Origin: Bacteroidota bacterium
GTDB taxonomy: Bacteria; Bacteroidota; Bacteroidia; Flavobacteriales_D; Crocinitomicaceae
Assembly: GCA_024280295.1 (NCBI GenBank)
Contig: JAJRQK010000025.1
Coordinates: 22,523-86,522, forward strand
Reading direction: 5' to 3'
DNA: 64,000 nt
Made by a program: the position numbers and the translations under genes. Numbering within the stretch: the stretch's first letter is position 1; every line of letters starts with the position of its first letter. Positions 31,319 to 49,949 of this stretch are shown in pieces. The notes below the pieces were generated by a model. That model saw nothing but the letters and a program-made list of their open reading frames with translations. It was not told the origin of the DNA and did no database searches.

Positions 31319-31319
31319 A

Positions 31320-33244: not shown

Positions 33245-33825
33245 TGATCCTCAGAAAATATGGAGTTGAGCTTGTTTCAATTACAAAAATTGACCTCGAA
33301 ACAATTAGAGTTTGGCGCAATGATCCGGCAGTGAGTACACGAATGTTTTTTCAAAAAAATATTTCCACAGAGAAACAACAGAATTGGTTTAACTCCCTTA
33401 CCAATTCTGATGTTTATATGATGATTTGTTATGATAATATCCAGATTGGATTAATAGACGTGAAGAATATTGACTTTGAAAATCTAACAGGAGAAGCTGG
33501 AATATTTATTGGAGATAAAGATTACAGACAGTCGTACGTTCCAATGCTCGCAATTCTTTGCATGATGCACACATTTTTCCTCGATTTCGGTTTTATATCT
33601 TTATCGGCTATCCTGCGAAGTGATAATAAAATGGCCCTTAAATTCAATCTTGACCTGGGATATGAAATTGTTTCTAAATCTTCAGATCAAATTAACTTGA
33701 AGGTGAGTAGAGAGGCTTTTTTGAATTATATTGATATCAATCAGTCAACTTATGCCTGTTTTGAGAATGACGAACTAGATCATTCACTTTCTTCAATTGA
33801 AGAAACTCTTTTCCGTTTGAAATAG
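33244..33825 (+). CDS. GNAT-family N-acyltransferase
   Basis: 193 aa with the IRVWRNDPAV motif typical of sugar N-acetyltransferase GNATs (PseH/WecD-like). Its start overlaps the preceding stop. Confidence 0.6.
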   Translation: MILRKYGVELVSITKIDLETIRVWRNDPAVSTRMFFQKNISTEKQQNWFNSLTNSDVYMMICYDNIQIGLIDVKNIDFENLTGEAGIFIGDKDYRQSYVPMLAILCMMHTFFLDFGFISLSAILRSDNKMALKFNLDLGYEIVSKSSDQINLKVSREAFLNYIDINQSTYACFENDELDHSLSSIEETLFRLK

Positions 33826-34682: not shown

Positions 34683-34751
34683 GTTTCGATTAATGTCTGA
34701 CCAAAACTACAAATAATCAAGCGATGTAAATCAATTCGTAGTTTGTTTAAT

Positions 34752-35726
34752 ATGTGTACCTTAGAAGCCACATTCTGCGACGTGAATAATTATCCCAAAA
34801 TATCAATTGTCACCGTAAACTTTAACAACGGTGAATTTCTCGAACAGACCATCAAATCGGTTATTGAACAGGAGTACCCTAATCTTGAGTACATCTTGAT
34901 TGATGGCGGTAGTACGGACAATAGTTTGGAAATAATCGAACGTTACGCGGACCATTTTTCTTATTGGATAAGTGAACCAGACGATGGACAATATCAGGGC
35001 ATTCAAAAAGGATTTGAAAAATCGACAGGCGAAATCATGGCGTGGCTGAATTCAGATGATAAATATTTGCCCCAATCGCTTTTCAGTGTAGCTGAAATAT
35101 TTACCAAGTACGAAGAAGTAAATTGGTTGATGGGATTAGCGCGAGAATATACAGAAGATGGTGCTCTTGTTGGTCAAATTACCTTACCATGGTGTCGCTG
35201 GTCAAAATACCGCTACCTCACAAATGATTTCCAATTCATACAACAGGAATCATCGTTTTGGTCGAGAGAGTTATGGGATAAAGTAGGAGCAACCCTCGAT
35301 TTTCAATTTGATTTAGCGGGAGATATGGAGTTGTGGTCACGTTTCTTCCGATTCGAGAAATTGCACACAACGACATTAGAATTATCTGGTTTTCGTCACA
35401 GGAAAGAAGGCCAACGATCAAAAGTAGGAAAGAAGACCTACCTCGAAGAATGTCTTCAAGTGGTTAAACGCGAACAAAAACGCTTATCAATTGGAACTAA
35501 AATAGGCTTACCTTTTCGCTACCTTGCCAAATGGTTTTTTGGCCCCTTCTTCTTTCTTGATTGGCCGTTTTTTAGATGGTTGTATCGACTTTCGTTCAGT
35601 ATTCCAGATGTCATTTATTATGATTTCTATAGCCACAACTTTACCAAAGAATCGAAAATGGTGAAATTGCCGCCAATGATGATAGGAAAAAGACAAGTTC
35701 ACCGTAAAATGTTCTCTCAGAAATAA
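34752..35726 (+). CDS. Glycosyltransferase family 2
   Basis: It has ISIVTVNFNNGEFLEQTIKSVIEQEYPNLEYILIDGGSTDNS and NSDD. I prefer the ATG at 34752 to the TTG at 34743. Confidence 0.8.
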   Translation: MCTLEATFCDVNNYPKISIVTVNFNNGEFLEQTIKSVIEQEYPNLEYILIDGGSTDNSLEIIERYADHFSYWISEPDDGQYQGIQKGFEKSTGEIMAWLNSDDKYLPQSLFSVAEIFTKYEEVNWLMGLAREYTEDGALVGQITLPWCRWSKYRYLTNDFQFIQQESSFWSRELWDKVGATLDFQFDLAGDMELWSRFFRFEKLHTTTLELSGFRHRKEGQRSKVGKKTYLEECLQVVKREQKRLSIGTKIGLPFRYLAKWFFGPFFFLDWPFFRWLYRLSFSIPDVIYYDFYSHNFTKESKMVKLPPMMIGKRQVHRKMFSQK

Positions 35727-36541
35727 TGGGAAAGACAGTCATAAATAATAAATCAGCAAAATTCGGAGAATACCTTCGAAGTATTTATCAATACCGACAA
35801 TTGATCTTCTCTTTTGCGAAACGAGATTTAAAAACTCGGTTTATTCAAACAAAACTAGGTGTGCTTTGGATGATTATCCAACCGTTAATCGCACTAACTA
35901 TTTTTACCATTTTCTTCGACCAATTAATTCAACTCGAAACAGGAGATGCTCCCTACATAGCGTTTGCATTTAGTGGAATGACGATCTGGTACTTTTTCAC
36001 AAACATGGTGAACACTGCTGGAACTGCATTGATTAGTTCGCAAGAATTAATCCGGAAAGTTTATTTCCCCAAAATATTACTTCCAATCTCAAAAATTGCC
36101 GTCGCAACGATTGAATTCTTTGTAGCTTTTTCGCTGCTGATCATCATAATGCTCATTCTTGGCTTGAACTTCTCTCCGAAAATTATCTTTCTACCAGTAG
36201 TAATTGTAATGACAATTCTAGTGGGAAGTTGTGTCGCTATTTGGCTAAATATCCTAACAATCAAGAAAAGAGATTTGCAACACTTGATTCCTTACCTCAC
36301 AAACTTTGGAATATGGGTAACTCCAGTTTTTTACCCAACTACATTGATTCCTGAAGAATTCCGTGATTACATTTATTACGTAAACCCAATTGCAACTACG
36401 ATTGATTTCCTAAGATCCATGCTTTTTGACCTCCCATTTCAATGGATGTACTGCTTGTCGTTTATCCCTGTTTTTATCCTACTTATTCTAGGAATTCGTA
36501 CTTTTAAGAATATTGAAAAAAACATGGTTGACTATCTCTAA
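35726..36541 (+). CDS. wzm: ABC-2 type polysaccharide exporter permease (Wzm/TagG/KpsM-like)
   Basis: 271 aa with six hydrophobic segments and the N-terminal RDLKTRFIQTKLGVLWMIIQPL motif typical of ABC-2 permeases. Confidence 0.8.
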   Translation: MGKTVINNKSAKFGEYLRSIYQYRQLIFSFAKRDLKTRFIQTKLGVLWMIIQPLIALTIFTIFFDQLIQLETGDAPYIAFAFSGMTIWYFFTNMVNTAGTALISSQELIRKVYFPKILLPISKIAVATIEFFVAFSLLIIIMLILGLNFSPKIIFLPVVIVMTILVGSCVAIWLNILTIKKRDLQHLIPYLTNFGIWVTPVFYPTTLIPEEFRDYIYYVNPIATTIDFLRSMLFDLPFQWMYCLSFIPVFILLILGIRTFKNIEKNMVDYL

Positions 36542-36550: not shown

Positions 36551-37600
36551 ATGAGAAAGATATTTAAAAATGAAGAACAACAGAAGCAATTTATCAAAGA
36601 CGGATTTGTGCTGCTTCAATTACTCGATGCAAAAGAGGTTGATACATTGTTAAACTATTACAACAATCAGCAATTTGATAATAAAATTGAAGCTGGATTT
36701 CACATCAGCCTTGACAACGAAAATGAAGATTTAGTAAAGGAAGTTGGATCGAAAATTAAAGAAATTGTTGTTCCGAAAACGTCTGATTTATTGGACAATT
36801 GTAAAGTCTTCACAGCAAGTTATGTGATCAAAGAACCAGGCTTACAAAACATCGTCCCACCTCACCAAGATTGGACTTTTGTGGATGAAAATCAATTCTG
36901 CTCGGCAACTGTTTGGACTGCATTGGTTGATGTGACTGAACAAAATGGAGCACTTGGTGTTATTCGAGGAAGTCACAAAATTTTCGATCACAAACGTTCA
37001 TCACCTTCGCCTCAATCTAAATCACCATTATCTGATCATGTTTTTACATTGTTTCCATTCGTCGAAATCATAGAAATGAAAGCGGGGGAAAGTTTAATTT
37101 TTGATAATCGTCTGATTCATGCGTCTCCACCAAATTTATCTGATCAAGCTCGAATTGCAGTCGGAATTGGAATTACACAAAGTGAAGCACAATTGAAACA
37201 TTATTACCAAAATCCTACTTCTGGAAAGTTGGAAGAATATGAGGTGGATGAGAATTTCTATACATGGTTCAACAACAAGCGACTTTCTGATTTATTTGAT
37301 GAAGGAAAATCACCCAGCGGATTAAAGAAAGTGAGGGAGGTTGAACGTGTAGTTCCCGATTTATCGAAAGAAGAAATGGAAAATCTCGTTCAACAATTAG
37401 ATGGAGTGGAGTACAATCGCCCTTTCATGGAGCGTTTGGCAAAATTGTTTGATTATTCAATCGATGGATCGAAAGGTGAAGATCAAGAACCTGAATTAGT
37501 AGTGACTGAAACATGGACTGATAAACGTTCCTTTTTCCAAAAGTATTCACCTGGAAATGTCGTCAGAGAAGTAAGTTGGAGAATAAAAGGTCGACCATAA
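36551..37600 (+). CDS. PhyH-family Fe(II)/2-oxoglutarate dioxygenase, paralog 1
   Basis: 349 aa with FIKDGFVLL, PPHQDWTFVDE, GALGVIRGSH, LIHASPPN and ARIAV. The C-terminal tail is KRSFFQKY...SWRIKGRP. Confidence 0.8.
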   Translation: MRKIFKNEEQQKQFIKDGFVLLQLLDAKEVDTLLNYYNNQQFDNKIEAGFHISLDNENEDLVKEVGSKIKEIVVPKTSDLLDNCKVFTASYVIKEPGLQNIVPPHQDWTFVDENQFCSATVWTALVDVTEQNGALGVIRGSHKIFDHKRSSPSPQSKSPLSDHVFTLFPFVEIIEMKAGESLIFDNRLIHASPPNLSDQARIAVGIGITQSEAQLKHYYQNPTSGKLEEYEVDENFYTWFNNKRLSDLFDEGKSPSGLKKVREVERVVPDLSKEEMENLVQQLDGVEYNRPFMERLAKLFDYSIDGSKGEDQEPELVVTETWTDKRSFFQKYSPGNVVREVSWRIKGRP

Positions 37601-37609
37601 TTGAAAGCG

Positions 37610-38548
37610 ATGAGAAAGACATTTACAGACCAAGGATTAGAAGAACGTTTTCAAAAAGACGGATACGTTGAAGTACCATTTTTGACCTCCAAAGAAGTTG
37701 AAATGCTGAAAACGTATTACTTTGATTCCTTAAATGAAAGCGGAGGAAGACTTGGGCCTGAAGACGAAAAACACCAATCGAATCAGGAAATCACTTATGA
37801 CTTCACGTTTATCGATAAGAATTCTGACTACAAGCAACAAGTGTTCGATATGATCACAAATGCCTTTATGAAACGAGTGGATGATTACCTATTTGATTAC
37901 AAACCGATCATTGCAAATTTTATCAGAAAGAAAGAGGACGGAGGAGAAGTTCCATTGCATCAAAATTGGGCATTTGCTGATGAACATAAATGTGCAACCG
38001 TCTCAATTTGGTGTCCTCTTGTGGACAGCAATAAAGAAAATGGAACACTCGAAGTTGTACCAGGAAGCCACAAACGCTATGGAGAAGTGCGTGGGCCGAT
38101 GATTAAATCGGAATTGGCTGGAATTTAATCTGAAATTATTGATAAGTATATGCAACCCGTTGAAACAAAAGCTGGAAATGCAGTTATCCTCGACGATAGT
38201 ATCGTTCATTATTCTTCCCCAAATCAAACAGATGGATTGCGTTTGGCGATTCAATTGATCCTAATTCCAACAGAAGAAAAATCAATTCATTTCCACATGG
38301 ACTTGGGTAAAGACAGGTCAAATGTTGAAGTTCTAGAAGTAGATAAAGACTTTTACATGAAGTTTAATCCGTGGAAAAAACCTTCAGAAGACGTGAAGAG
38401 AATAAACTCATTTAAGTACGAACCGTTTGATATGACAATCGAAGAATTCGGTGCTAAATTGAACAAACAGCGTTTCGACGAGAATAACCAGCCAGTTGAA
38501 GCACTATCTTGGTGGAAAAAAGTACGATCTAAATTGGCAGGAGCATGA
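37610..38548 (+). pseudogene. PhyH-family dioxygenase paralog 2, interrupted by an in-frame TAA (38126-38128) and with H-Q-N replacing H-x-D
   Basis: ORFs 37601-38128 and 38150-38548 are in the same frame. The junction reads ...KSELAGI*SEIIDKYMQPVETKAGNAVILDDSIVHYSSPN, collinear with the neighbouring paralogs. The metal motif is PLHQNWAFADE, with AAT at 37964-37966. Confidence 0.75.
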
Positions 38549-39471
38549 TTGATTTCGATCAGAAAAAAGGGATTTTTAGTGACCCGAAGCTACAAACAGA
38601 GTTTCATGAGAATGGATTCGTTATTGTGCCGTTTATTTCACCTCAACAAATTAAGGAATTATTTGGAGTTTACAAGTCCTGTTATCCTGATGGAGTGGAA
38701 GGCTTTTTCACCACAACCTTTGCGAATAATGTTGAACACCGAGAGCTTGTCAATCAATCGATAAAGAATATTTGTATTGAACAGATCGAAAACTTGTTTG
38801 AGAACTATAAAATTCTGTTTTCTAGTTTTATTGTCAAGGCTCCAGGAGAAGACAGTCGCCTAATCATGCACCAAGACATGACCCTAGTTGATGAAAACGA
38901 ATACTCTGGGATCAATATTTGGTGTCCAATGGTCGATTTGAACGAACTCAACGGAGCGATTGAAGTGTTGCCAAAGAGCCATCGGTTCTATAAAACATAT
39001 CGAGGTTCTTCTATTCCTGATATCTATGATAATGTAAAGGATGAGGTTGTGAATTTGATGCAACCATGTTTCTTGAAAGCTGGTGAAGCAATCATTTTCG
39101 ATCAAAGTATTATTCACAATTCACCTCCTAATTTATCAGATACGGAACGTCCGACAATCAATACGTTTGTTGCACACAAGAATGCAAAAATTAAAATTTG
39201 CTATTGGGACAAAGACACGTTTGGAGATAACATTGAAGTGTTCGAACAGGAAGATGACTTCTTGGAGAAATTTGAGAACTTCGGACACAATATTTTCAGT
39301 CGGCCAACAATCGGGAAAAGTTTAGGGCTCTTTCCGTATGATTTCCCGAAATTAACTGTGAATCAAATTGAACGTGAATTGGGAGTGACAATTGCTCGTG
39401 CACCTCAAAATCAACCTGAACAGGAAAAACAAAGTTGGTTAAAACGACTTTTTTCAATAAAAACAGCATGA
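38545..39471 (+). CDS. PhyH-family Fe(II)/2OG dioxygenase, paralog 3
   Basis: 308 aa with FHENGFVIVPF, IMHQDMTLVDE, GAIEVLPKSH and IIHNSPPN. The tail is SWLKRLFSIKTA. ATGA overlap with the upstream gene. Confidence 0.8.
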   Translation: MIDFDQKKGIFSDPKLQTEFHENGFVIVPFISPQQIKELFGVYKSCYPDGVEGFFTTTFANNVEHRELVNQSIKNICIEQIENLFENYKILFSSFIVKAPGEDSRLIMHQDMTLVDENEYSGINIWCPMVDLNELNGAIEVLPKSHRFYKTYRGSSIPDIYDNVKDEVVNLMQPCFLKAGEAIIFDQSIIHNSPPNLSDTERPTINTFVAHKNAKIKICYWDKDTFGDNIEVFEQEDDFLEKFENFGHNIFSRPTIGKSLGLFPYDFPKLTVNQIERELGVTIARAPQNQPEQEKQSWLKRLFSIKTA

Positions 39472-40337
39472 AAGAACCCATTTTTAAAGATGCAGAAATT
39501 CAACGCAAGTTTGACGAAGATGGCTTTGTGAAAATCCCTTTGTTGAGTGAGCAAGAAGTGGATACTTTAGCGAAAATGAGAGAAGAATATTTCCCTGAGA
39601 AAGGAAGCGTATTTTTCTCATCGAGCTACTTAGACGACTATGATTTAAAAATGGAAATCAGCAACAAAATTTCTGAAGCAATCAGTGCGGGATTAGAAAA
39701 ACAATGTGTCAATTATCGATTGATTGGAGCAGCATATTTGATCAAAGGAATTGGAAAACACAGCGAAATGCCAATGCATCAAGATTGGACGATTGTAGAT
39801 GAGCAGGAATTCTATGCTGTCAATGTTTGGATTCCACTAACTGACACCAACGAGGAAAATGGAACACTTGAATTGATGAAGGGAAGTCATAAATGGAATG
39901 AAGCATTACGCGCACCAACCTTACCTATGGCGTTTGCAGGATTGGAAGATAAAATAAAACCTAAATTAACAGTAGTTCCTGCCAAAAAAGGTGAGGTAAT
40001 TATACTGAACCAAGCAACAATTCATTATTCAAAGCCAAACACGACAGATGAAATTCGTCCTGCAATCACATCGGGAATGATTAGTCAAAAAGCACCACTC
40101 AAATTCCATTATTGGGACAAGGAACGAAATCAAATAGAGGAGTTCGAACAGGAGGATGATTTCCTTTTGCGTTTCGAGAATTTTATGGATGCAATTTACA
40201 AACGTCCTCTAATGGGCAAGAGTAAGCAATTCTTTGATTATTCAATTCCTAGATGGAACGAACAAGATTTGAATAGGTTGACTAATACAAGAGTAAATAA
40301 ATCGTCATTTTTTAAACGAATATTCGGGAAATCATGA
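39468..40337 (+). CDS. PhyH-family Fe(II)/2OG dioxygenase, paralog 4
   Basis: It has FDEDGFVKIPL, PMHQDWTIVDE, GTLELMKGSH and TIHYSKPN. The tail is SSFFKRIFGKS. The ATG at 39468 forms an ATGA overlap with the upstream stop, so I prefer it to the 39435 start in the ORF track. Confidence 0.8.
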   Translation: MKEPIFKDAEIQRKFDEDGFVKIPLLSEQEVDTLAKMREEYFPEKGSVFFSSSYLDDYDLKMEISNKISEAISAGLEKQCVNYRLIGAAYLIKGIGKHSEMPMHQDWTIVDEQEFYAVNVWIPLTDTNEENGTLELMKGSHKWNEALRAPTLPMAFAGLEDKIKPKLTVVPAKKGEVIILNQATIHYSKPNTTDEIRPAITSGMISQKAPLKFHYWDKERNQIEEFEQEDDFLLRFENFMDAIYKRPLMGKSKQFFDYSIPRWNEQDLNRLTNTRVNKSSFFKRIFGKS

Positions 40338-41197
40338 ATCGAGTTAACTTTAAAAGTCCTGAACTGACAGAACGATTAAAAGTGGATGGATACGCAACAT
40401 TTAATTTGCTGCGTGATCATGATATAGAAGCGTTGACCTCTATTTTTAATGAAAACCATTCATCTACCCCTGAAGGCTTTTATGCCACAACTCATTTGGA
40501 TGACAAGAAGAAACGAAAAACGTTGAGCGATCAAGCAATGTCTATCTTATCTTGTCGGATTGAATCTCATTTTGAAAACATTGAACTATTGGGAGGAGCA
40601 TTTATTTCAAAATCTCCAGGTGAGAAAGGAATTTTACCACTTCACCAAGATTGGAACTTAGTCAACGAAAAACACGCGCGATCCTATAATTTATGGATTC
40701 CTCTGGTTGATGTCGATGAAGTAAATGGCGCGATGAGAATTTTGGTCGGAAGTCACTCAAAGCAGGAAACGTACCGAGGCCCAAATGTTCCGCCAGTACT
40801 GTACTCGATTTCGAATGAAGTAGATCAGCACATGGTTTCGTTAAACATGAAACAAGGTGAGGCTGTGCTATACGATCACGCACTCTGGCATTCTTCTCCA
40901 AAAAACCAAACGGATAAACTACGCCTTGCCTTTGTGTTGGGTGTTGTTCCAAAAGAAGCAGATTTGAAGTATTATCAGCAAAATGGAGATACTGTGGAAG
41001 AATATGCGTCACATTCCAATTTTTTCTTTGAAAATGATCGAGATTCAGGCCCAAAGGGATTATCCTTGCTGCGATCATTCAACTATCCAAATTCTTTTCT
41101 ATCAAAAGAGCAATTTGAAGAAGTGTATCTTGGAAAAGATAAACTGAAACAAGAACCAAAAAAAGGCTTTTTCCAAAAACTATTTGGGACTAAATAA
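40334..41197 (+). CDS. PhyH-family Fe(II)/2OG dioxygenase, paralog 5
   Basis: 287 aa with LKVDGYATF, PLHQDWNLVNE, GAMRILVGSH and LWHSSPKN. The tail is KKGFFQKLFGTK. ATGA overlap with the upstream gene. Confidence 0.8.
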   Translation: MNRVNFKSPELTERLKVDGYATFNLLRDHDIEALTSIFNENHSSTPEGFYATTHLDDKKKRKTLSDQAMSILSCRIESHFENIELLGGAFISKSPGEKGILPLHQDWNLVNEKHARSYNLWIPLVDVDEVNGAMRILVGSHSKQETYRGPNVPPVLYSISNEVDQHMVSLNMKQGEAVLYDHALWHSSPKNQTDKLRLAFVLGVVPKEADLKYYQQNGDTVEEYASHSNFFFENDRDSGPKGLSLLRSFNYPNSFLSKEQFEEVYLGKDKLKQEPKKGFFQKLFGTK

Positions 41198-41203
41198 GAA
41201 ACA

Positions 41204-42175
41204 ATGACTACAACAATATATATCGTATTTATTCTACTTCTAGCGATATGCTGTTTTGTTCTCACGATCCTATTGATGAGAAAAGGAAGTAAGGATAAAA
41301 GGATGATTATTCCCCAAAAACCAGATCATTCAGCTCGAGAAGTTGGTGATTTTTACAACAATCAAACCAATAATTTTTTAAAAGTTTATGGCGAAGTGAT
41401 TCAAGCATTTCGAACAACTGATGTGACCAAATTACTCGATTATCAAATTGAAACAATTGGTTTCGAGAAAGGTCAGCGGGTTTTAGATGCTGGTTGCGGA
41501 GTTTGTGGTCCAGCTCGATATTTTGCGAAAAATGCAGGTGTCCAAGTTGAAGCAATCACCATTTCGGAGGATCAAGTTGAAAAGTCAAAAAAATACATTG
41601 CTGACGAAGGCTTGGAAGGAAAAGTCAATGTTACACATGGCGATTATCACCAATTAGAGAAATATTACGAATCGGATAGTTTTGATGCCGTGTATTTCTT
41701 GGAATCGTTTGGGCATGCTACAAATCATGAGCAGGTAATCAACTCTGCATGGGGAATGTTGAAGCCAGGAGGGAAACTCTACATCAAAGATTTATTCATC
41801 AAGGAAGCGGCAATCCAGTCTTTATCGGATGATATTCAACGCGAAGTGAAAAACATCAATGACGCGTATCGCTACAACATTGCTGATTTATACGAAGTAT
41901 TAAAACATGTTCGAAAAAAAGGATATATCCTATCAAGCGTTAAAACCATCGACCTTCCCTTGGAGGATTTTGAAAACTTAACGATCTCAAATGATTTCCA
42001 AGAACTAACGGGTATCAATAAAATTGAAAACCTACAAGAATATGTGTTTCCCGTCGATTTTTTCGAGATAACATGTATCAAACCTTGGAATGCCCTAGAG
42101 TATGGGAATAGTCGTTATTTCTTGCAGAATTTATTCTACATGCAAATGCATAATCGTAAACAGGAGGAATTGTAA
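41204..42175 (+). CDS. Class I SAM-dependent methyltransferase with an N-terminal TM anchor
   Basis: 323 aa with TM TIYIVFILLLAICCFVLTILLM, SAM motif I VLDAGCGVCGPARYFA and post-I/II elements (VEAITIS, FDAVYFLES, LKPGGKLYI). It ends 2 nt before wzt. Confidence 0.8.
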   Translation: MTTTIYIVFILLLAICCFVLTILLMRKGSKDKRMIIPQKPDHSAREVGDFYNNQTNNFLKVYGEVIQAFRTTDVTKLLDYQIETIGFEKGQRVLDAGCGVCGPARYFAKNAGVQVEAITISEDQVEKSKKYIADEGLEGKVNVTHGDYHQLEKYYESDSFDAVYFLESFGHATNHEQVINSAWGMLKPGGKLYIKDLFIKEAAIQSLSDDIQREVKNINDAYRYNIADLYEVLKHVRKKGYILSSVKTIDLPLEDFENLTISNDFQELTGINKIENLQEYVFPVDFFEITCIKPWNALEYGNSRYFLQNLFYMQMHNRKQEEL

Positions 42176-42177
42176 TC

Positions 42178-43389
42178 ATGGATGACGATAGAAAAGTGTT
42201 GGAAGTCAGAAATCTTCAGAAAGTATTTGTGAAAAATGACGGAACTAAAATTCTTGTCTTGGATGATGTCAATTTTGATCTAAACAAAGGCGAAATTTTA
42301 GGTGTAATCGGACGAAATGGATCAGGAAAAAGCACCTTGTTGAAAGTGTTAAGTAAGATTAGTGGTCCAACCGATGGAGAAATTCAATATTCTGGTATTC
42401 TGAAATCAATTATCGAAATTGGAACCGGGTTTCATCCTGATTTGTCTGGCAAGGAGAATGTAAAGTTGAATGCTCAACTACTTGGTATTCCTTGGAATGA
42501 ATTTAAGTTGATTTATGATGAATTGGTAGAATTTAGCGGACTGGAAGATTTCATGAATATGCCAGTTAAGCATTATTCGAGCGGAATGTATTTGCGTCTA
42601 GCTTTTTCCATTGCTTTCCATTCTAAAATCGATATTCTTTTACTTGATGAGGTTTTGGCAGTGGGAGATGCTGAATTTCGGCGTAAATGTTACCACAAGA
42701 TCAGGGAATTACGAGATGAAGGAACAGCAATTATTTTTGTGAGCCATCAAATGGAACCGATTATTGAATTCTGCGAACGTTGCATGTGGTTGGATAACGG
42801 TCGAGTGGAAATGATTGGAAAACCAATGGATGTAATTGAAAATTACCTAGACTCAAGTTTAAATCAAAATGACAAAATTCGTGGTGAGAGAATTGATTCA
42901 GAGCGAATAGCATATGAGATTGATTACGCTAGTTTAAATTCAGAATTTTTAAAAGTGAATGCCATATTCGTATATGCGCAAGGAAAAGATCTTGATGAAA
43001 ACATTACAGTTTCCGATGATATTATTATAAAAATGGAGTGCGATAAATTGGTGGATTTTAATTCATTTGAAATTATTTATACGCTTTGGAACATAAATAA
43101 TGTTCGCGTACTGACAGACTCATATGGACTTCGGCGTGATTATTCTATTGAGAGTCTGAAAAAAGGAAAGTACGAAGTGATCTGTCGAATACCAGCTAAC
43201 TTGTTAACAAGAGGCGTTTACAGTGTGGGGATTGCAATTGGTCGCTCAAGAGAATTTGTAAAAGAAGTACCGAACGTCTTCAATTTTAAAGTTCATACAG
43301 AAGAAGAGGATGTTTACGGAATCGAGATAAGTTCAATCATTCGTCCTCACTTGGACTGGACTGTTGAACTGAAAAAGTCCAATGTTTAG
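42178..43389 (+). CDS. wzt: Polysaccharide ABC exporter ATPase (Wzt/TagH-like) with a ~160-aa C-terminal extension
   Basis: 403 aa with Walker A GRNGSGKST, signature YSSGMYLRLAFS and Walker B LLLDEVLAVGD. Residues ~245-403 extend beyond the NBD, as in Wzt proteins that carry a glycan-cap-binding domain. Confidence 0.8.
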   Translation: MDDDRKVLEVRNLQKVFVKNDGTKILVLDDVNFDLNKGEILGVIGRNGSGKSTLLKVLSKISGPTDGEIQYSGILKSIIEIGTGFHPDLSGKENVKLNAQLLGIPWNEFKLIYDELVEFSGLEDFMNMPVKHYSSGMYLRLAFSIAFHSKIDILLLDEVLAVGDAEFRRKCYHKIRELRDEGTAIIFVSHQMEPIIEFCERCMWLDNGRVEMIGKPMDVIENYLDSSLNQNDKIRGERIDSERIAYEIDYASLNSEFLKVNAIFVYAQGKDLDENITVSDDIIIKMECDKLVDFNSFEIIYTLWNINNVRVLTDSYGLRRDYSIESLKKGKYEVICRIPANLLTRGVYSVGIAIGRSREFVKEVPNVFNFKVHTEEEDVYGIEISSIIRPHLDWTVELKKSNV

Positions 43390-44273
43390 AAAAATAACCA
43401 CCTTTTCTTTGAAGGAATATGCTTTTTTAAAAGCGATTTGAATTCGCTGTTACTAATCGAATCAAGATTACCGTAATCAATAGTTGTTTTATTCTTCCCA
43501 ATCGGATTCGGATCGTCTTTCTGGTTATTGAAATCGTCGTAATGAATGAATAAATCATCAGGCACATCGTAGCGATTAACTTCCATTCCTCTATTGGTTT
43601 CTGCTCCATGAAAACACATCGTTTCCGCAGGAATTGGAATAATATTATTAATAATCGAAGTTCTTGATGAATCGGAAAGGTTCGGTGGCGAATAATGTAA
43701 AATTCGGCTATCGAAGATTAACGCTTCTCCTACTTTCACATCAATTGGCTTAAGGTGTTTCTTCGCCTCATCTATATTGCCTGAAAATTTTGGGGGAATT
43801 CCTGCTCCACGAATGTTTAACGGAAAACGGTGACTTCCTTTTACAGCATAGAGAGTTCCATTCTGAGTCGTACTATCAACTAAAGGAATCCATAAATTGT
43901 AAGCGCGAAATTTACGTTCATCAATAATACTCCAGTCTTGGTGCAAGTTTAAAACGGAGTTGTCACCGATACCTTTAACCAAAAAGAAATAAGAGAGCAT
44001 TCTATGATTGACGAGCATTGATTCTATACTTGGAGAAAGCATATCACGTATTCCGGCATGTACGTTTCGCTTAATATCAATGTCAGAAATTGAAACACTT
44101 CCATAAAAAGCAGATTCAAAATCTTGGGGATAACCATCCACAGTTGTCTCTAAAAATGAACGATAACTCTCGGAATCGAAATTCGGCAAGCTAATTTTCA
44201 CAATGCCATCTTCACGCAATGATTGATTCAAAGCGTCAGAATGAAATACATCGATCCAATTTTCGGTTTCCAT
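43386..44273 (-). CDS. PhyH-family Fe(II)/2OG dioxygenase, paralog 6
   Basis: It has LREDGIVKISL, NLHQDWSIIDE, GTLYAVKGSH and ILHYSPPN. The tail is SKKRWLFF. I prefer the ATG at 44273 to the TTG at 44282. Its 3' end overlaps the wzt stop by 4 bp. Confidence 0.8.
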   Translation of the reverse strand: METENWIDVFHSDALNQSLREDGIVKISLPNFDSESYRSFLETTVDGYPQDFESAFYGSVSISDIDIKRNVHAGIRDMLSPSIESMLVNHRMLSYFFLVKGIGDNSVLNLHQDWSIIDERKFRAYNLWIPLVDSTTQNGTLYAVKGSHRFPLNIRGAGIPPKFSGNIDEAKKHLKPIDVKVGEALIFDSRILHYSPPNLSDSSRTSIINNIIPIPAETMCFHGAETNRGMEVNRYDVPDDLFIHYDDFNNQKDDPNPIGKNKTTIDYGNLDSISNSEFKSLLKKHIPSKKRWLFF

Positions 44274-44278
44274 TTTTA

Positions 44279-46147
44279 TCAATTAAAGAATGATTTTATT
44301 TTTTGAAAAAAACCATCCGATTCCTCTTGAGTTTTAGCCGTTTTTTGTTGAGGTAAGTTCAGGCCGTCAAAGTGACTTTTGTTATATGGTTTTGGATCAA
44401 CATTAAGTGTTTGAATGTGATCAATTGTCGTTGGATAATCGAATCGATCTTCCCGCAATAAATAGTTAGGATACGATAAGAATTCTTCAGTTCGCTCTCC
44501 AAGAGGAGTTTCATTAATATGATAGAATCGAAACTCAGCATTTTTGTTTGTTATCGCGCAAGCAGATGCTGGACGAACAATGGTGCTATTATTATTTCGC
44601 GATCCATGAATGAAGCGATGGTCATAAATAAAGGCGTGACCAGCTTTCATTGGTTTTAATTCCAAATTATCCCACAGAAAATCTTCTACATCTCGCAATT
44701 GATTTATAACGTTGGGTCCACGATATGTTGGTTGAATCAAATGACTTTTTGGAAGTATTTCAATAGCACCGTTCTCGGCTGTTGTATCAACCAGTGGCAC
44801 CCAAATGTTGCATGATCTAAATCGACGTTCGTCCACCAAGTTCCAATCCCTATGTGGAGTAATGAGCCCTTTTCCGTTTGGAGGTTTTGCAACGAATGTC
44901 CCACCTAATATTTGAGTGTCAACGAAGAGTTCTTCAACGTGTTGAGCGTACATATTTGCAATCCAATCGTTCACGTTTTTTTTCAATTCAACATCTTCGG
45001 AATGACTGATTGCAAATATCCGTTCGGCACTATCTTTATTCTGATCGTTAAAATAGTTCAGTAATTTGGCCACTTCATCTTCATTGAAAAATGGAATGAT
45101 TGCATAACCTTCTTCGCACAATTCCCGCTCTAATTCATCGTCCTTGAAAATGCGTATCGCCTCATGCACGTCAGAATTGTATTCAGCGAACTTCGCTTGC
45201 TCGAGAGGGGTTGTTGTTATTGGTTCAGTGATGAAGTTTTGAACTGGTTCACCATCATGGAACAAAGAAACTTTCTCAATTCCAAGTAAGTCACAATCGT
45301 TTTCGAATTGCTCAGAAGTGATTTTTGGAGAAATAAATGCTCCTTCACCTATTTTTTTACCAATCGTAGGTCGTACAACACAATTGTGAAAGAAATTTGG
45401 ATAATTAATTAAAAAATCATCAGCTTGCTGGTAAAGTTCTATTGGGTCATCTTCTTTATCTTGGTAACTCAACTGGAAGGTCGCTTCTGCCGGAAGGATA
45501 CCACTCACAACCGCAATTCGATCTTTCCCTGATGTGTTTTTTCCAGAAGTATGAATAATCCGAGCATCGAACACGAGTGCTTGACCCGCCTTCAATGCAA
45601 TTGGTTTCAAGTATTTCTTGACTGTTTCTTTAATGTTTGAAAAGGGAGGAGAAAACGACACGCTTCTGAACGGAGAAAACATTTGATGCGTTTTTTCTAC
45701 AACCCATAAAGCACCATTAGTTTCATCAACGTCCTGCAAGGGAATCCATACGCTCAAAGAAGAATGTTTGAATTCATCTACTGCGCTGGAATCTTGGTGA
45801 ATTGAAAATGCGCTATCGTCACCAGATAATTTATTAATGAAAAAATTCAAACCGTTGTTGTACCCTGTAAAATGTTCTTCGAAAACAGAATTGAGTTCTG
45901 TCTGAAGTGCACTATGAATACGTTTACGATAGTCGGTATCTTGAGAATAAACAGAGTAGAACATTCCTCCTTTTTCATCTGTTAGTTGGTGCTCCTGATG
46001 GTAAATCGAAAGCATCTCCTCAATTGTTGAAGGTTCAATTAGATCCACTATTGCATAACCAAATTCCTCAACCTTCTGTTTGATTTCAGAATTTTTGAAA
46101 ATGGTAAATGGAGCGGGAGTCCATGAAAATGGATGGGAATAACTCAT
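44279..46147 (-). CDS. Tandem double PhyH-family Fe(II)/2OG dioxygenase (two complete domains in one polypeptide)
   Basis: Domain 1 has SIHQDSSAVDE, GALWVVEKTH and IIHTSGKN. Domain 2 has TPHRDWNLVDE, GAIEILPKSH and FIHGSRNN. The tail is GFFQKIKSFFN. The start at 46147 forms an ATGA overlap with the upstream stop. Confidence 0.8.
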   Translation of the reverse strand: MSYSHPFSWTPAPFTIFKNSEIKQKVEEFGYAIVDLIEPSTIEEMLSIYHQEHQLTDEKGGMFYSVYSQDTDYRKRIHSALQTELNSVFEEHFTGYNNGLNFFINKLSGDDSAFSIHQDSSAVDEFKHSSLSVWIPLQDVDETNGALWVVEKTHQMFSPFRSVSFSPPFSNIKETVKKYLKPIALKAGQALVFDARIIHTSGKNTSGKDRIAVVSGILPAEATFQLSYQDKEDDPIELYQQADDFLINYPNFFHNCVVRPTIGKKIGEGAFISPKITSEQFENDCDLLGIEKVSLFHDGEPVQNFITEPITTTPLEQAKFAEYNSDVHEAIRIFKDDELERELCEEGYAIIPFFNEDEVAKLLNYFNDQNKDSAERIFAISHSEDVELKKNVNDWIANMYAQHVEELFVDTQILGGTFVAKPPNGKGLITPHRDWNLVDERRFRSCNIWVPLVDTTAENGAIEILPKSHLIQPTYRGPNVINQLRDVEDFLWDNLELKPMKAGHAFIYDHRFIHGSRNNNSTIVRPASACAITNKNAEFRFYHINETPLGERTEEFLSYPNYLLREDRFDYPTTIDHIQTLNVDPKPYNKSHFDGLNLPQQKTAKTQEESDGFFQKIKSFFN

Positions 46148-47064
46148 GTTTTCAGGATCGTTTTTTTGATTTTTCTTAACCAATTAGTAGTGTTTTTAGC
46201 TTTCTGAATAGGCTTGATTACTTTGACTTCTCCCTGAACCAATCTAATTTGCTCGATTAAGTGATTCTCAGAAAGTGAATCAAATGTAAATGAATCAAAT
46301 TCTGCTTCACCTTCTGGTCGCGCTCCTCGTTTTGACGCATAATCAATATAGAAATCAGGTGTTGTTTCAAATCGTTCTAGTTGCTTTTCACCTTCACCAT
46401 TTTCCTTATAATGAAAATAGTGCTGAGCATTTTCTGGTGTGAGTGTTAAGCCCAAACTTACACGGGATTTCGGAGTTTTATTCAAGGTTGATCCGTGAAG
46501 TAAACCATGAAAAAAGAAGATTGCTTCACCAGCTTTCATCGGCACTGATTGCATATTTTTTTCAATAAGTTTCCAGTGATCTCGGTAAACGTCGGGAGTT
46601 CCAACGCCACGAATAGTTCGATTGAATTGATGACTTCCTTTTAAAACAATGATGTTTCCATTTTCATCATTTACATCTTCAAGCGGACACCACATGTTGA
46701 TACTCCAATCATTTCGCTCATCTACAAACGACCAATCCTGGTGCGGAGGAAGATGTCCTTCTTGAGTGGGAGGTTTCACAACAAATAATCCGCCAAATGC
46801 GTTGTATTTGCAAAATGTCGTATTCATTTTCTCCTGAAAGACGCGTATTATTTCATTTTCCACTTCCAGTTTATATTCCATTCGTGGATCGAAATAGGAC
46901 TTGTAAAATGCAGTTGGGTGCTCAGGGTGCCATTTCTTATATAATTCTTTAAACGCCGAAATTTCCTGTTTGTCGATAAATGGAAGTACAATGAAACCAT
47001 CGCGCACCATTTTTTTATCCAATTCTGGATTTAAAAATAGACCAACAGGTTTCTCATTTAACAT
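46144..47064 (-). CDS. PhyH-family Fe(II)/2OG dioxygenase, paralog 9
   Basis: It has MVRDGFIVLPF, PPHQDWSFVDE, GNIIVLKGSH and LLHGSTLN. The tail is NWLRKIKKTILKT. I prefer the ATG at 47064 to the TTG at 47076. Confidence 0.8.
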   Translation of the reverse strand: MLNEKPVGLFLNPELDKKMVRDGFIVLPFIDKQEISAFKELYKKWHPEHPTAFYKSYFDPRMEYKLEVENEIIRVFQEKMNTTFCKYNAFGGLFVVKPPTQEGHLPPHQDWSFVDERNDWSINMWCPLEDVNDENGNIIVLKGSHQFNRTIRGVGTPDVYRDHWKLIEKNMQSVPMKAGEAIFFFHGLLHGSTLNKTPKSRVSLGLTLTPENAQHYFHYKENGEGEKQLERFETTPDFYIDYASKRGARPEGEAEFDSFTFDSLSENHLIEQIRLVQGEVKVIKPIQKAKNTTNWLRKIKKTILKT

Positions 47065-47123
47065 AGAAGAGTTCAAATGTTTCAGGTTTAAAGATACGAC
47101 TTCCTATAGAACTAAATCAAGTT

Positions 47124-48046
47124 TCAAGTCCAGTACTTTAAGGTTTTTTCATCTTCCGTGAAAGCTAAAAATCCCCCAATAGTAATTCTGTTTTGAGTTC
47201 CTTCAACCAATTCTACTTTGTGCCAGATTGGACCTCCAGAAAAGATCAAGAGATCACCTGCATTCGGTTTCACTTTACTTCGCTTCAAGGGGCTGTTTGG
47301 GCTTGTGTCTAGACTTGTTCCGTCTGCTAAAAACACTTCATTATCATGACGAGCACTTTCTTTTGTTTGACCACCTTCCCAGAGTAAATCGAACAAGGTT
47401 AATTCCCCACCAATTTCAGCTGGATTTACCGTTAAAAAATAGCTGAGTTGATCTTTGACATTAACTTCTGTCTGTAAATGATCATAAAATACAGGAAACT
47501 CTTGTTGGAAGTAATTACCGCAGTGAACCATAATGAATCCTTGTCCTGGATAATTAACCCGAATAGAACCACTTGCATAACGCCCTTCTCCATCAAATCC
47601 TTTTGGAACATCTACTGATCGACCTCCTACTAACTTCTCTAAAATTGATTGAAGCCTTTTATTGAAGTCAAAGCCAGTAAGTTTTTTAAATGTTTCAGAC
47701 AACTGCTCGCATTCATTGAAATAGGCTTTGATGTTGTCGCGTTCTTGCGAAAAATCGTCATCTGGTTTACCAATTGTGAAAAATGCCGTGGATACGAATG
47801 TCCAACACCTGTAGGAATCGTTATTTCTGGATCAATCGCTTCGATTGCCGTTTTCATTTTCGATATTTCTTCTTTCGAGCAGACATTTCGAATGATAATT
47901 CCAGTATATTTTTTGTCGTAAATGTCTTTCACGGCATCAGAGAAATTGTCCAATTCGGAAACATCAATGTATTTCCAATTGTATAGGTCATTTTGGATGT
48001 TGGAGACGGAAATTTTCTTTTTGAAAAAATTAAATTGTTTAAACAT
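47124..48046 (-). pseudogene. P4H-like 2OG-Fe(II) oxygenase-fold gene split by a -1 frameshift; the H-x-D position reads H-C-G
   Basis: ORFs 47639-48046 and 47124-47702 overlap in different frames. The downstream frame is open up to 47831. Restoring one base in the A5 run at 47779-47783 (T5 on the coding strand) joins ...GVGHSYPRHF to FTIGKPDDDFSQERDNIKAY.... The fold motifs are VNYPGQGFIMVHCGN, LSYFLTVNPAEIGGELTLF, KPNAGDLLIFSGGPIWHKV and NRITIGGF. Confidence 0.65.
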
Positions 48047-48051: not shown

Positions 48052-48582
48052 TTAAAAATCAAAGTTAATTATACAGCCAATTAGTGGCGTTTCTGAAATT
48101 TGAATTTCTTTATTTCCCTTCCATTCCTGAATCGCTAAATCTACATAATTTATGGTTGGTTCATATTTATGTTTTCCAAGTTTGATGTAATAATCATCCA
48201 TTTTTCCAGAATAGATGCACTTTTCACCATCATAGAGCATGATTTGTGGGGTAACTGTCGCTCCGTGTTTCTTGGCAATGTTCAAATTAGTATCGCAAAT
48301 CACCTCAAAAACAATGTCAAATTCGCTCAATGTTTCATCCAGCTTAGTTTGATCCAATTGCGGATCAGATACTATACCAATAACCTTAAGACTTGATGGA
48401 TATCGCTCCGAAATCCGTTGCATCTTAGGGAGGTTATTTCTTGATGCAGGGCAATCAGAAATAAAGAAAAAATAGCATGTCAACTCACCTGAATTTTTCT
48501 GAACCTTTGCGATCGTTTCATTCTTCGAGTCAGAACATCCGAATGTGAGTGCAAAAAGCGATAAAAGTAGTATGATTTTCAT
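48052..48582 (-). CDS. Thioredoxin-fold lipoprotein with a monothiol C-P-A-S motif
   Basis: 176 aa with lipobox LTFGCS. It resembles TlpA/AhpC-type proteins (CYFFFISDCPASRNNLP ... VTPQIMLYD). Its start overlaps the upstream stop by 1 nt. Confidence 0.55.
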   Translation of the reverse strand: MKIILLLSLFALTFGCSDSKNETIAKVQKNSGELTCYFFFISDCPASRNNLPKMQRISERYPSSLKVIGIVSDPQLDQTKLDETLSEFDIVFEVICDTNLNIAKKHGATVTPQIMLYDGEKCIYSGKMDDYYIKLGKHKYEPTINYVDLAIQEWKGNKEIQISETPLIGCIINFDF

Positions 48583-49949
48583 TATTCAATAAGGTGACCT
48601 AGTTTGAGATTTTCATCGTTTTCATCGTACTTCATGTAGGTTAAACAGAGTACGAACATTTCATCTTTTGCTCCGTGCCCAAATCCGACATCACGAATGG
48701 GTGAATTTGGTTGGTACTGATTTTTTGAAGTGTTGTCATAAACAATATTCATAAAGATAATTGATCCTTTTGGGATTGTTTTTGCAGTTTCAAACATGTA
48801 TTGCCCTTGAAAGTAATAATCCCAATCGTCTATTCTGAGTAGTTTGATTTTTTTGTTTTCGGGTGTCAGCGCATAGCATTCCACCATTCGACCTAAGAAA
48901 TGAAAATGAGGAAAAAGTCCTATTAGACTGATCGTCGAGTCAATTTTTTGTTCTATTGTTATAACAGTTACTTCATTGGCGGGAATAGAGAAATCCAGAT
49001 CACTTTGCGTAAGAAATTGAACCTCTTTTTTAACCTCTTCGATATAATGAAGACTGATCGAGATATCACCTGAATGATTTTTATATTCTGGCGCATAATG
49101 TGCTTGAAGAACAATACAACTTCCCTTTGGGATTTTTAGTCCTAAATCACTATCGAATAAAAAGGGTTGTTTTCCTCTGCTCCAAACGCCAATTTGTGTT
49201 CCAATCACTTCTGATTCGATGCAGTCCCAAGTCGAAGGATTATTATCTCCTTTTTTTGCAACGAACACAGTAACATGATGCAATATTTCGGGATTATCTG
49301 TTATTACCTCAAATCCAGAAATGTATCGGTCTTTGGTTGATTCAAGGTCTAATGAAAAGCATTGATAAGTATCTTTATTGCTGCATAATACATGACGTTT
49401 ATCATACCTTAGAATTGTATCGGGAATTGTTTTTCGAGAATAGTTCAAATCATCAGCTTTGTTACTCAGTGTTGCTCCTTGATCTATCCATTCAATCAAT
49501 TTAGCACGTTGATAATCATCTATGTCTGGCGCGTTATAGAAGGTTGAATAAGTGGGGTCAGGAGTCCATGGAGGCATAAGCTTAGTATTCAAAGCTTCTT
49601 TGATTACCTGAGCGCGTTTCTTTATGTCGAAATAGGACGTGAGTGCAAATGGGGCATTTCCTTTTTCACGATGACATAGGATGCAATTTTTCTGAAAAAT
49701 AGGAGCCACGTCTTTGTAATCTAACTCCAGCGTATCAAGATTAAAAGAAGACTTCTGATCTAAAACAGGATGATCCCTTTTCTGTAAATACGCATGAAGA
49801 ATTGAGTCTCTTGCAATTTCATTGATTGAGTTTGCATGAGAAATAGCTCCAGCTGTTTTTTTTGGGGACGTGCAAGATGCTATGAACAGAATAAGGAAAA
49901 ACACACTTGTCAGGTACCGAAACAGATTTGAAATGGGAGTTATTTTCAT
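48582..49949 (-). CDS. Lipoprotein combining a cytochrome c (CxxCH) module with a PHM/DBH-like copper type II monooxygenase domain
   Basis: 455 aa with lipobox FIASC and heme motif CILCH (49671-49685). Copper-site motifs are collinear with peptidylglycine monooxygenase: YQCFSL...ILHHVTVF, VLQAHYAP, LFPHFHFLGR, KDEMFVLCLTYM. Confidence 0.7.
   Translation of the reverse strand: MKITPISNLFRYLTSVFFLILFIASCTSPKKTAGAISHANSINEIARDSILHAYLQKRDHPVLDQKSSFNLDTLELDYKDVAPIFQKNCILCHREKGNAPFALTSYFDIKKRAQVIKEALNTKLMPPWTPDPTYSTFYNAPDIDDYQRAKLIEWIDQGATLSNKADDLNYSRKTIPDTILRYDKRHVLCSNKDTYQCFSLDLESTKDRYISGFEVITDNPEILHHVTVFVAKKGDNNPSTWDCIESEVIGTQIGVWSRGKQPFLFDSDLGLKIPKGSCIVLQAHYAPEYKNHSGDISISLHYIEEVKKEVQFLTQSDLDFSIPANEVTVITIEQKIDSTISLIGLFPHFHFLGRMVECYALTPENKKIKLLRIDDWDYYFQGQYMFETAKTIPKGSIIFMNIVYDNTSKNQYQPNSPIRDVGFGHGAKDEMFVLCLTYMKYDENDENLKLGHLIE

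Follow-up and report, generated by a model that had tools for sequence, protein, structure and literature searches.

Bacterial surface glycoconjugates are usually diversified by glycosyltransferases and by acyl or methyl transfer, with at most one hydroxylase contributing. Here we describe a 64-kb stretch of DNA from an uncultured aquatic member of the Bacteroidota (the window, meaning the whole stretch analysed), in which eight genes encoding nine domains of the PhyH family of Fe(II)/2-oxoglutarate (2OG) dioxygenases are arranged around a Wzm/Wzt-type ATP-binding cassette (ABC) exporter. LpxO and KdoO resemble the system proposed here in being Fe/2OG enzymes that act at the cytoplasmic face of the membrane on an envelope glycolipid before its export, whereas they are single enzymes of other 2OG families, are not encoded between wzm and wzt and do not form a battery. 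The ABC-dependent pathway of Escherichia coli O9a likewise places a membrane-associated methyltransferase (WbdD) beside the exporter and has an ATPase with an extra C-terminal domain, but there one bifunctional protein adds a terminal phosphate/methyl cap and oxygenases are absent. The wzm/wzt lipopolysaccharide (LPS) cassettes of Xanthomonas share with the window annotated phytanoyl-CoA dioxygenase family genes, UbiA and methyltransferases, but hold only one or two such PhyH genes, which are uncharacterised and likened to the window's family by annotation alone. A curated carbohydrate-cluster family, TIGR04324 ('sporadic carbohydrate cluster 2OG-Fe(II) oxygenase'), was the best NCBIfam match of one of the window's proteins (paralogue D, see below), which did not reach membership with 27.9 bits against a cut-off of 150.

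Multiple PhyH-type oxygenases acting along one pathway are described for antibiotics. The orthosomycin oxygenases EvdO1, EvdO2, EvdMO1, AviO1 and HygX, as well as SnoK and SnoN of nogalamycin biosynthesis, combine the PhyH-type fold with action on the sugar rings of an assembled glycoside and with several paralogues per pathway. They differ from the present system in belonging to actinomycete antibiotic clusters, in numbering 2–4 rather than 5–12, in being soluble without a tail and in lacking Wzm/Wzt. The fungal meroterpenoid oxygenases SptF, AndA and PrhA, together with TlxI/TlxJ, are also PhyH-like and oxidise isoprenoid skeletons from UbiA-type prenyltransferases, but they serve eukaryotic small-molecule pathways with few paralogues and no exporter coupling, and the similarity is at the level of the fold only. 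In the literature on PhyH/2OG dioxygenases in O-antigen, capsule and ABC-exporter loci we found no description of a multi-paralogue battery, of membrane tails or of the fusions reported below. The author of an earlier note on this DNA knew of no such battery described for an ABC-dependent glycan pathway, which agrees with this literature, whereas PhyH genes in wzm/wzt cassettes are already annotated in Xanthomonas, and 2OG oxygenases of carbohydrate clusters make up the TIGR04324 family.

PhyH domains and the exporter operon

The eight genes span positions 36551–47076 and form two convergent blocks, comprising the paralogues that we term A, B, C, D and E on the + strand and F, G (with domains G1 and G2) and H on the − strand. 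All eight matched Pfam PhyH (PF05721) above its gathering score, with 48–134 bits against a cut-off of 22. When the entire window was scanned in six frames with a family hidden Markov model (HMM), partly built from the window's own sequences, the same nine domains came back and no further copy. Paralogue A (36551..37600; Pfam PhyH E = 6.9e-23) displays the pattern HQD...H...R and an internal or terminal amphipathic tail, SFFQKY...WRIKGRP, whereas B (37610..38548) has an H-Q-N triad and an in-frame TAA and is matched by PhyH in two pieces (2.1e-12 and 5.8e-4). The following C (38545..39471; 1.5e-15), which overlaps B through an ATGA, carries HQDMTLVDE and the tail SWLKRLF, D (39468..40337; 1.2e-22 over the full profile) HQDWTIVDE and SFFKRIF, and E (40334..41197; 6e-20) HQDWNLVNE and GFFQKLF. 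On the − strand, F (43386..44282; 1.2e-18) shows HQDWSIIDE and ends in KKRWLFF, and H (46144..47076; 8.3e-20), whose true start is possibly the ATG at 47064, shows HQDWSFVDE and NWLRKIKK. The double-domain G (44279..46147; 1.4e-38 over two stretches) combines HQDSSAVDE in G1 with HRDWNLVDE in G2, followed by the tail GFFQKIKSFF; the HMM places the domains at residues 27–323 and 344–629, and the start is most likely the ATG at 46147, giving 622 residues as compared to 621 for the orthologue in the related locus L003.

Full-length alignment of the nine domains, extending about 80 residues past the Pfam model, yielded pairwise identities of 18.7–33.6%. The alignment shows an FxxDG(F/Y)V-like motif, H(Q/R)Dxxx(V/I)DE, NGxLxVxxGSH, (I/L/V/W)HxS and a downstream Arg. 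The 2-His-1-carboxylate triad HxD...H is kept in eight of the nine domains, the exception being B. An Arg 11 residues past the distal His (R197 in D) is invariant in all nine domains and in the orthologues, and by analogy it would be the ligand of the 2OG C5 carboxylate. A signal peptide was found in none of the window's PhyH proteins, and none of them matched the LpxO-type Pfam family Asp_Arg_Hydrox (PF05118).

We modelled D, as the only paralogue, using AlphaFold2 (AF2), which resulted in a model that is confident except for the tail (predicted local distance difference test, pLDDT, 92.5; predicted template-modelling score, pTM, 0.88). A Foldseek search with this model and a profile search of the PDB gave PhyH-type enzymes exclusively, at template-modelling (TM) scores of ~0.45–0.59, the relatives listed being MysH, PHYHD1, PhyH, SnoK, SnoN, EvdO2, AviO1, HygX, EvdMO1, KanJ, SptF, AndA, PrhA, FtmOx1 and SyrB2. 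The Foldseek probability was 1.00 for MysH, SnoK, SnoN, EvdO2, PHYHD1, KanJ and SyrB2. Sugar-, terpenoid- and acyl-CoA-acting relatives score alike, indicating that the structural ranking does not separate substrate classes. A heterodimer of two PhyH-like paralogues, TlxI/TlxJ, has been solved (PDB 7vbq).

The + block runs in the order glycosyltransferase family 2 (GT2), wzm, A–E, methyltransferase and wzt, with intergenic gaps of −4 to +9 nucleotides, and it meets the − block tail to tail, the 3′ ends of wzt and F overlapping by 4 nucleotides. Start–stop overlaps of 4 nucleotides were verified at 38545, 39468, 40334, 44279 and 46144. The operon opens with the GT2 glycosyltransferase GT2b (34743..35726, +; Pfam Glycos_transf_2, 1e-23), the stop of which overlaps the wzm start (gap −1); this adjacency recurs in most Crocinitomicaceae-type loci at 52–92% identity. 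The Wzm-like ABC-2 permease (35726..36541, +) matches Pfam ABC2_membrane at 1.9e-14 and 54.2 bits (cut-off 26.9), its best NCBIfam families being KpsM (5e-15) and galactan Wzm/RfbD (3.3e-12). For the Wzt-like ATPase (42178..43389, +; Pfam ABC_tran 5.2e-19, 69.6 bits), which has a divergent C-terminal domain, these are TagH (4.9e-53) and galactan Wzt/RfbE (1e-47). Judged by these family matches, the exporter is an ABC-2 permease with a separate ATPase of the TagH/Wzt/KpsT clade. Further glycan-assembly genes accompany it in the window, encoding GT2 and GT4 glycosyltransferases, a WaaL-like ligase, Wzz, an aminotransferase and an epimerase.

Between E and wzt lies a class I S-adenosylmethionine (SAM) methyltransferase (41204..42175, +; Pfam CMAS 8.9e-17, Methyltransf_11 3.9e-16) with an N-terminal transmembrane anchor formed by residues 1–29. 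It is the best-conserved gene of the module, with 47–90% identity across loci. The closest solved structures are natural-product and sugar enzymes, namely MitM, 5gm1, 3bus and the D-glucose O-methyltransferase 6uv6, and the family matches include cyclopropane synthases (CMAS, CfaB), UbiE/UbiG and a geranyl diphosphate (GPP) C-methyltransferase.

Together, these data bear out what the earlier note had read from the letters of the window. Pfam and the HMM scan return its eight genes and nine PhyH-type domains, to which the AF2 model of D adds matching PhyH-type Fe/2OG structures, and the alignment recovers every motif of its common set as well as the intact triad in all domains but one. Its view of the copies as divergent, with no recent duplicates, agrees with the low identities and with the one-to-one orthogroups described below, and the start–stop overlaps and convergent blocks that it placed around the methyltransferase and wzt are all real.

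Related loci, fusions and membrane tails

Paralogue D has 205 database relatives, the named ones coming from Fluviicola, Crocinitomicaceae and Flavobacteriales metagenome-assembled genomes (MAGs), and one public-collection entry (P0001) is 100% identical to it. We scanned one genome per GTDB species with two exact D-specific peptide patterns, which divergent orthologues would escape, so that the taxonomic range obtained is a lower bound. The module was found in 39 other genome loci, all from MAGs and mainly from Crocinitomicaceae/Flavobacteriales; the remaining bins were a single Saprospiraceae, a single Pelobium and a few with proteobacterial names, which may be mis-binned. In line with the synteny expected by the earlier note, the relatives in these and in metagenomic loci hold the same genes between wzm and wzt. 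The kept order is wzm > A > (B) > C > D > (E) > methyltransferase > wzt, after which come a gene of the WelO5 family and another one to three PhyH genes, and the same order is found in loci L042 and L047. The number of PhyH domains per locus is 5–12, and 5–9 in loci with full flanks.

When the 271 PhyH domains of the loci were clustered at 38% identity, orthogroups with a single member per locus resulted. Orthogroup D is present in 41 loci, A in 39, C in 38, E in 36, B in 34 and G1 in 24, an orthogroup without a window member occurs in 20, and F, G2 and H occur in 4, 3 and 3 loci, respectively. Orthologues are 45–93% identical as compared to 19–34% for paralogues, indicating that the duplications are old and that each copy has been retained, which in turn argues for distinct functions.

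Some loci depart from this arrangement by insertions or in their surroundings. In L001/L034 (12728–15455), genes of the adenosine phosphosulfate (APS) kinase, PAPS_reduct and GTP_EFTU families, which we read as cysC/cysD/cysN, lie between the methyltransferase and wzt, and the same sulfate-activation insertion was deduced for L013 solely from its wider gene spacing. Judging from these gene families, the insertion implies a sulfated product in those organisms; no sulfotransferase was recognised at the L001/L034 insertion. L030 has a tyrosine integrase gene (1162–2370) at a distance of a few kb from the module, the first PhyH gene and one for a radical SAM protein (3377–4768) intervening, which hints that the module can be mobile.

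A profile search of 1.84 billion cluster representatives resulted in 2,126 hits at E ≤ 1e-30, many of them two- or three-domain PhyH proteins. In L042, wzm is followed by a triple-PhyH gene, three PhyH genes, the methyltransferase, the ABC ATPase and a WelO5 gene, with two PhyH genes in addition. In L047, which also holds an ABC-2 permease, an Asp_Arg_Hydrox gene, GT2 genes and a B12 radical SAM gene, six PhyH genes precede a single PhyH-PhyH-ABC_tran-Wzt_C polypeptide. Fusions to UbiA are represented by a methyltransferase-UbiA-PhyH-PhyH polypeptide (L045) and by a PhyH-UbiA-PhyH-TPR protein (L043), whose locus further comprises a 1,390-residue multi-glycosyltransferase protein and a sulfotransferase-TPR gene adjoining wzt. 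Methyltransferases are joined to PhyH pairs in either order (methyltransferase-PhyH-PhyH and PhyH-PhyH-methyltransferase, in P0188 and P0198), and in five loci the E-position PhyH domain, bearing an A-type tail, is fused to the methyltransferase. PhyH-PhyH is also fused to an LpxO/OlsC-type (Asp_Arg_Hydrox) domain (L044 and P0219), A and B are fused to each other in many related loci, and G1 and G2 are fused in close relatives of the window. These fusions tie the PhyH proteins functionally to the exporter ATPase, to the methyltransferase and to a UbiA-type membrane enzyme, providing stronger evidence than synteny alone. A different setting was found in L046, where 11 PhyH genes with 12 domains of the same paralogue types stand directly behind a UbiA gene, together with a second UbiA, a CMAS-like methyltransferase, an FAD oxidoreductase and, at the locus edge, a type-I ABC exporter; no glycosyltransferase and no wzm/wzt were found within 20 kb.

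Nearly all PhyH copies terminate in a short basic/aromatic amphipathic segment or a transmembrane helix, examples of the former being SFFKRIFGKS, GFFQKLFGTK, SWLKRLFS, GFFQKIKSFFN, SWWKKVRSKL and NWLRKIKK. A strict tail motif within the last 25 residues was detected in 133 of 211 PhyH proteins as compared to 12 of 247 neighbouring proteins, with a tail net charge of +3.6 versus +1.2. These segments are reminiscent of the MinD-type membrane-targeting helix. In some relatives genuine C-terminal transmembrane helices replace the tail, and WelO5-like proteins carry a similar segment at the N-terminus (e.g. MFLKKLFGKK). The methyltransferase has its own transmembrane helix when free and lacks it when fused to a tailed PhyH. 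From the tails and the lack of signal peptides, we infer that the PhyH proteins are probably attached peripherally to the cytoplasmic face of the membrane, where lipid-linked intermediates and the exporter are located.

Paralogue B deviates in two respects. Its stop and the conservation of its H-x-N variant had been overlooked by the earlier note, along with the adjoining tenth Fe/2OG-type gene described below. The gene is interrupted by the in-frame TAA at 38126–38128 while its remainder is undamaged, and its C-terminal fragment alone scores 20.6 bits with Pfam (cut-off 22). The corresponding residue is Gln in nine orthologues that are 78–90% identical, so the stop would be a single CAA>TAA change, as deduced from this residue and not from the orthologues' codons, reflecting either a nonsense mutation that arose very recently or an error of the assembly. 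The H-Q-N triad, in contrast, is common to 35 of 35 members of the B orthogroup, all with the distal His and the Arg retained, indicating an old variant and not degeneration. We therefore ruled out that H-Q-N marks B as a decaying pseudogene, only the TAA being specific to the window. To our knowledge, no characterised Fe/2OG enzyme has Asn at that triad position, and B may serve A, to which its orthologues are fused in many loci, as a non-canonical or catalytically inactive partner.

The tenth gene (47124..48046, −) belongs to the WelO5 family, known for carrier-protein-independent Fe/2OG halogenases, with Pfam matches of 1.2e-50 for its C-terminal part (173 bits against a cut-off of 27) and 1.6e-8 for its N-terminal part, and carries the halogenase-type H-x-G (VHCGNYF) instead of H-x-D. 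The coding sequence is split by a 1-nucleotide deletion in an A-run near 47767, as seen by comparison with the intact 308-residue orthologue of L003. We read HxG in eight WelO5-like orthologues, in one of them as VHSGNYF, while a motif search did not locate it in the remaining open reading frames. WelO5-like genes adjoin wzt in most related loci, which hints at a chlorinated or brominated product, but HxG is no proof of halogenation, because the non-halogenating HygX also has it as part of its HxG...E metal site (PMC13374393).

Proposed tailoring pathway and rival readings

We consider it probable, on balance, that the nine PhyH domains constitute a membrane-associated oxidative tailoring line within the same pathway as the bracketing Wzm/Wzt-type exporter. 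A polyprenyl-anchored glycoconjugate would be assembled on the cytoplasmic face of the inner membrane by a UbiA-GT4-GDSL fusion protein of 1,069 residues encoded in the window (57056..60265, +; Pfam UbiA 1.2e-13, Glycos_transf_1 2.4e-35 and GDSL), which likely makes the lipid-linked substrate, together with GT2b, the first gene product of the operon. Each PhyH paralogue, tethered by its tail helix, would abstract one C–H hydrogen using Fe(II), 2-oxoglutarate and O2, leading to hydroxylation or another 2OG-type reaction. Methylation of the product would fall to the lone SAM methyltransferase, and the WelO5-like HxG enzyme may add a halogen. B may pair with A as a non-canonical subunit, for which, as for the G1–G2 fusion, the 7vbq heterodimer is a possible model. 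Wzm/Wzt would then export the tailored product, which would be finished in the periplasm by a copper monooxygenase and probably also by the ligase and O-acyltransferases encoded nearby.

Several observations weigh against this reading or narrow it. Equivalog-level Wzm/Wzt identity was not reached, the ATPase scoring 162–181 bits where 320–538 would be needed and the permease 46–56 against 300–380. For residues 266–381 of Wzt, the Wzt_C profile gives 25.7 bits (E = 1.3e-5) where its gathering score asks for 30.4; L002 and P0232 likewise yield weak matches, while in L043 the match reaches E ≤ 1e-5 (precomputed hits). The L046 locus, without wzm/wzt or a glycosyltransferase, suggests that the link to Wzm/Wzt is frequent but maybe not obligatory. 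No member of the family has a known chemistry, and that one site falls to each paralogue is something we purely infer. Furthermore, two Fe/2OG genes are broken in the window, B by its stop and the WelO5-like gene by its frameshift, so that the pathway may be partly inactive in this organism, unless both are assembly errors, and MAGs or unbinned metagenomic contigs are the source of all loci.

Whether the oxidised positions would lie on the sugar or on the isoprenoid/acyl part of the product we judge to be roughly even, leaning slightly to the lipid. A wzm/wzt operon opening with a GT2 gene, the fusion to Wzt, the glycan genes around the module and the sugar-acting structural relatives speak for the glycan, whereas the UbiA fusions, together with those to LpxO-type domains, make the lipid a serious candidate, and the UbiA genes near the module, the L046 locus, the membrane tails and a number of paralogues exceeding the C–H positions of one sugar were likewise counted for a lipid target. 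Carried further, the lipid evidence would allow for a pathway in which the PhyH battery and the methyltransferase modify a UbiA-installed prenyl chain, for example by hydroxylating successive isoprene units, giving a polyoxygenated terpenoid (glyco)lipid for which Wzm/Wzt would be just one of several possible exporters; we regard this as conceivable though rather doubtful. It would account well for the two polypeptides that unite UbiA with PhyH domains, and for L046 with its 12 PhyH domains, two UbiA genes and a methyltransferase. A UbiA gene lies at most 10 kb from the module in at least 17 loci, and one is present in the window, where its domain retains both Asp-rich motifs and, as a profile, gives weak archaeal prenyltransferase matches in the PDB (AfUbiA 1.5e-3, DGGGP synthase 0.035) with no match to the phosphoribosyltransferase Rv3806c, a single-sequence PDB search being empty. 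The membrane tails, the meroterpenoid oxygenases SptF, AndA and PrhA among the PDB relatives, and the matches of the methyltransferase to olefin/prenyl methylases (CMAS, CfaB and the GPP C-methyltransferase) would fit as well, as would the fusions to LpxO/OlsC-type domains, hydroxylases whose known bacterial substrates are lipid acyl chains. What such a pathway explains less readily is the position of the genes between wzm and wzt in the window and at least 40 loci, often behind a GT2 gene, and the fusion of one family member to Wzt itself. In the window UbiA is moreover fused to GT4, so that a sugar would be attached in any case, and the loci showed neither polyprenyl synthase nor reductase genes. 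In the Xanthomonas cassettes, UbiA stands beside FAD/NAD oxidoreductases and GtrA-family and flippase-like genes in the LPS-biosynthesis half, and a set of UbiA, FAD/NAD oxidoreductase and GtrA genes is reportedly a feature of pentofuranose-donor systems.

Orthosomycin-like chemistry on a polysaccharide, by which the enzymes, instead of leaving hydroxyl groups behind, would act on sugar rings by cyclising them oxidatively (to interglycosidic orthoesters or, once O-methylated, to methylenedioxy bridges), by epimerising them or by forming C–C bonds, appears improbable to us. We know of no orthoester-linked bacterial surface polysaccharide, and the context is an envelope glycan locus and not an oligosaccharide-antibiotic cluster. 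EvdO2, AviO1, HygX, EvdMO1, SnoK and SnoN do rank among the closest solved relatives, but the window's enzymes are no closer to these than to MysH, PHYHD1 and the meroterpenoid oxygenases (Foldseek E 1e-13 to 1e-10, TM score ~0.5), and their domains have the canonical HxD, not the HxG...E of HygX. The architecture of EvdMO1, a methyltransferase-oxygenase fusion, has its counterpart in the methyltransferase-PhyH fusions of the window's family. Formation of the orthoester by HygX on an assembled glycoside has been demonstrated in vitro, and everninomicin involves several such oxygenases (PMC13374393). Even less credible is a peptide resembling ribosomally synthesized and post-translationally modified peptides, or another non-glycan secondary metabolite, that would be hydroxylated by the PhyH enzymes and exported by the ABC-2 pump. 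Enzyme types that are also used on peptides are encoded nearby, namely radical SAM/SPASM proteins, the PHM-like monooxygenase, the thioredoxin-like protein and, in L002, a protein with an HTTM domain, but the gaps of at most 9 nucleotides within the blocks could not accommodate a precursor gene, the radical SAM proteins fall into NF033640 and not into a peptide-maturase equivalog, the ATPase is closest to TagH and Wzt/RfbE, and glycan genes lie all around.

Returning to the membrane-associated tailoring line, a bolder version, which we put forward tentatively and would not bet on, is a hitherto undescribed class of envelope glycolipid whose polyprenyl or other isoprenoid anchor, put in place by the UbiA-GT4 enzyme, would be oxidised position by position by 5–12 regiospecific Fe/2OG enzymes, methylated and sometimes chlorinated or sulfated, by an assembly docked on the membrane and on Wzm/Wzt in which B pairs with A. 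Tailoring and export would then be physically coupled, and the Wzt, UbiA and methyltransferase fusions offer a concrete model of such coupling. In any case, a C–H-activating enzyme family is embedded in an ABC-dependent export operon, its separate orthogroups being kept across the carrier Bacteroidota MAGs, and the more than 2,100 related metagenome clusters suggest that the envelope lipids or glycans of abundant aquatic bacteria undergo an extensive oxidative chemistry that is as yet unexplored. This would matter for recognition by phages and grazers and for the composition of dissolved organic matter in the sea, and the family could be a source of regiospecific oxygenases, possibly including a halogenase, for lipid-linked substrates.

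Other genes of the window

Next to the WelO5-like gene, a pair of periplasmic proteins is encoded at 48052..49949 (−), as judged from Pfam matches and the signal/lipobox. One is a thioredoxin-like lipoprotein; the other, a PHM/DBH-like copper type II monooxygenase, also bears a cytochrome c domain. L030 and L031 have the pair inside the operon, between E and the methyltransferase. It is unusual to find a bacterial PHM-like enzyme encoded in a glycan locus.

At 51001–55165 lie genes for three radical SAM paralogues in which the twitch/SPASM domain precedes the radical SAM core (NCBIfam NF033640). We had considered this domain order as an anomaly and dropped the idea, as it matches the described subfamily NF033640. 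Relatives recur in related loci, some of which (L030, L044, L047) additionally encode B12-binding radical SAM proteins and a multihaem cytochrome. Upstream of the UbiA fusion lies a gene for a GDSL-like protein of 524 residues (55308–56882, +). In other loci UbiA, GT4 and GDSL are encoded separately, immediately upstream of the PhyH/wzm module.

On the other side of the module, a cassette at 29357–34682 encodes a phosphopantetheinyl transferase, a WecE-like dTDP-4-amino-4,6-dideoxyhexose aminotransferase, an acyl carrier protein (ACP)-like open reading frame of 73 residues (31097–31318), a FabH-like ketosynthase, an ArnC-like polyprenyl-phosphate GT2, a PseH-like GNAT and a conserved 300-residue protein (33780–34682), the last without a Pfam, NCBIfam or PDB sequence match. 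This last protein might conceivably be the sulfotransferase that the cysC/cysD/cysN genes of L001 imply. The gene content suggests that this cassette serves to make an N-acylated amino sugar linked to a lipid. Further upstream (20741–28909) follow a WaaL/O-antigen-ligase-like gene, Wzz, an ExbB/ExbD set and a pair of MBOAT and AlgX-like SGNH genes of the type used in polysaccharide O-acylation. The window also encodes a carbamoyltransferase and, as mentioned, an epimerase. Two large proteins with β-propeller repeats and C-terminal sorting domains of the type IX secretion system are encoded at 10407–15474 (−), and these cargo genes confirm the Bacteroidota origin of the DNA.

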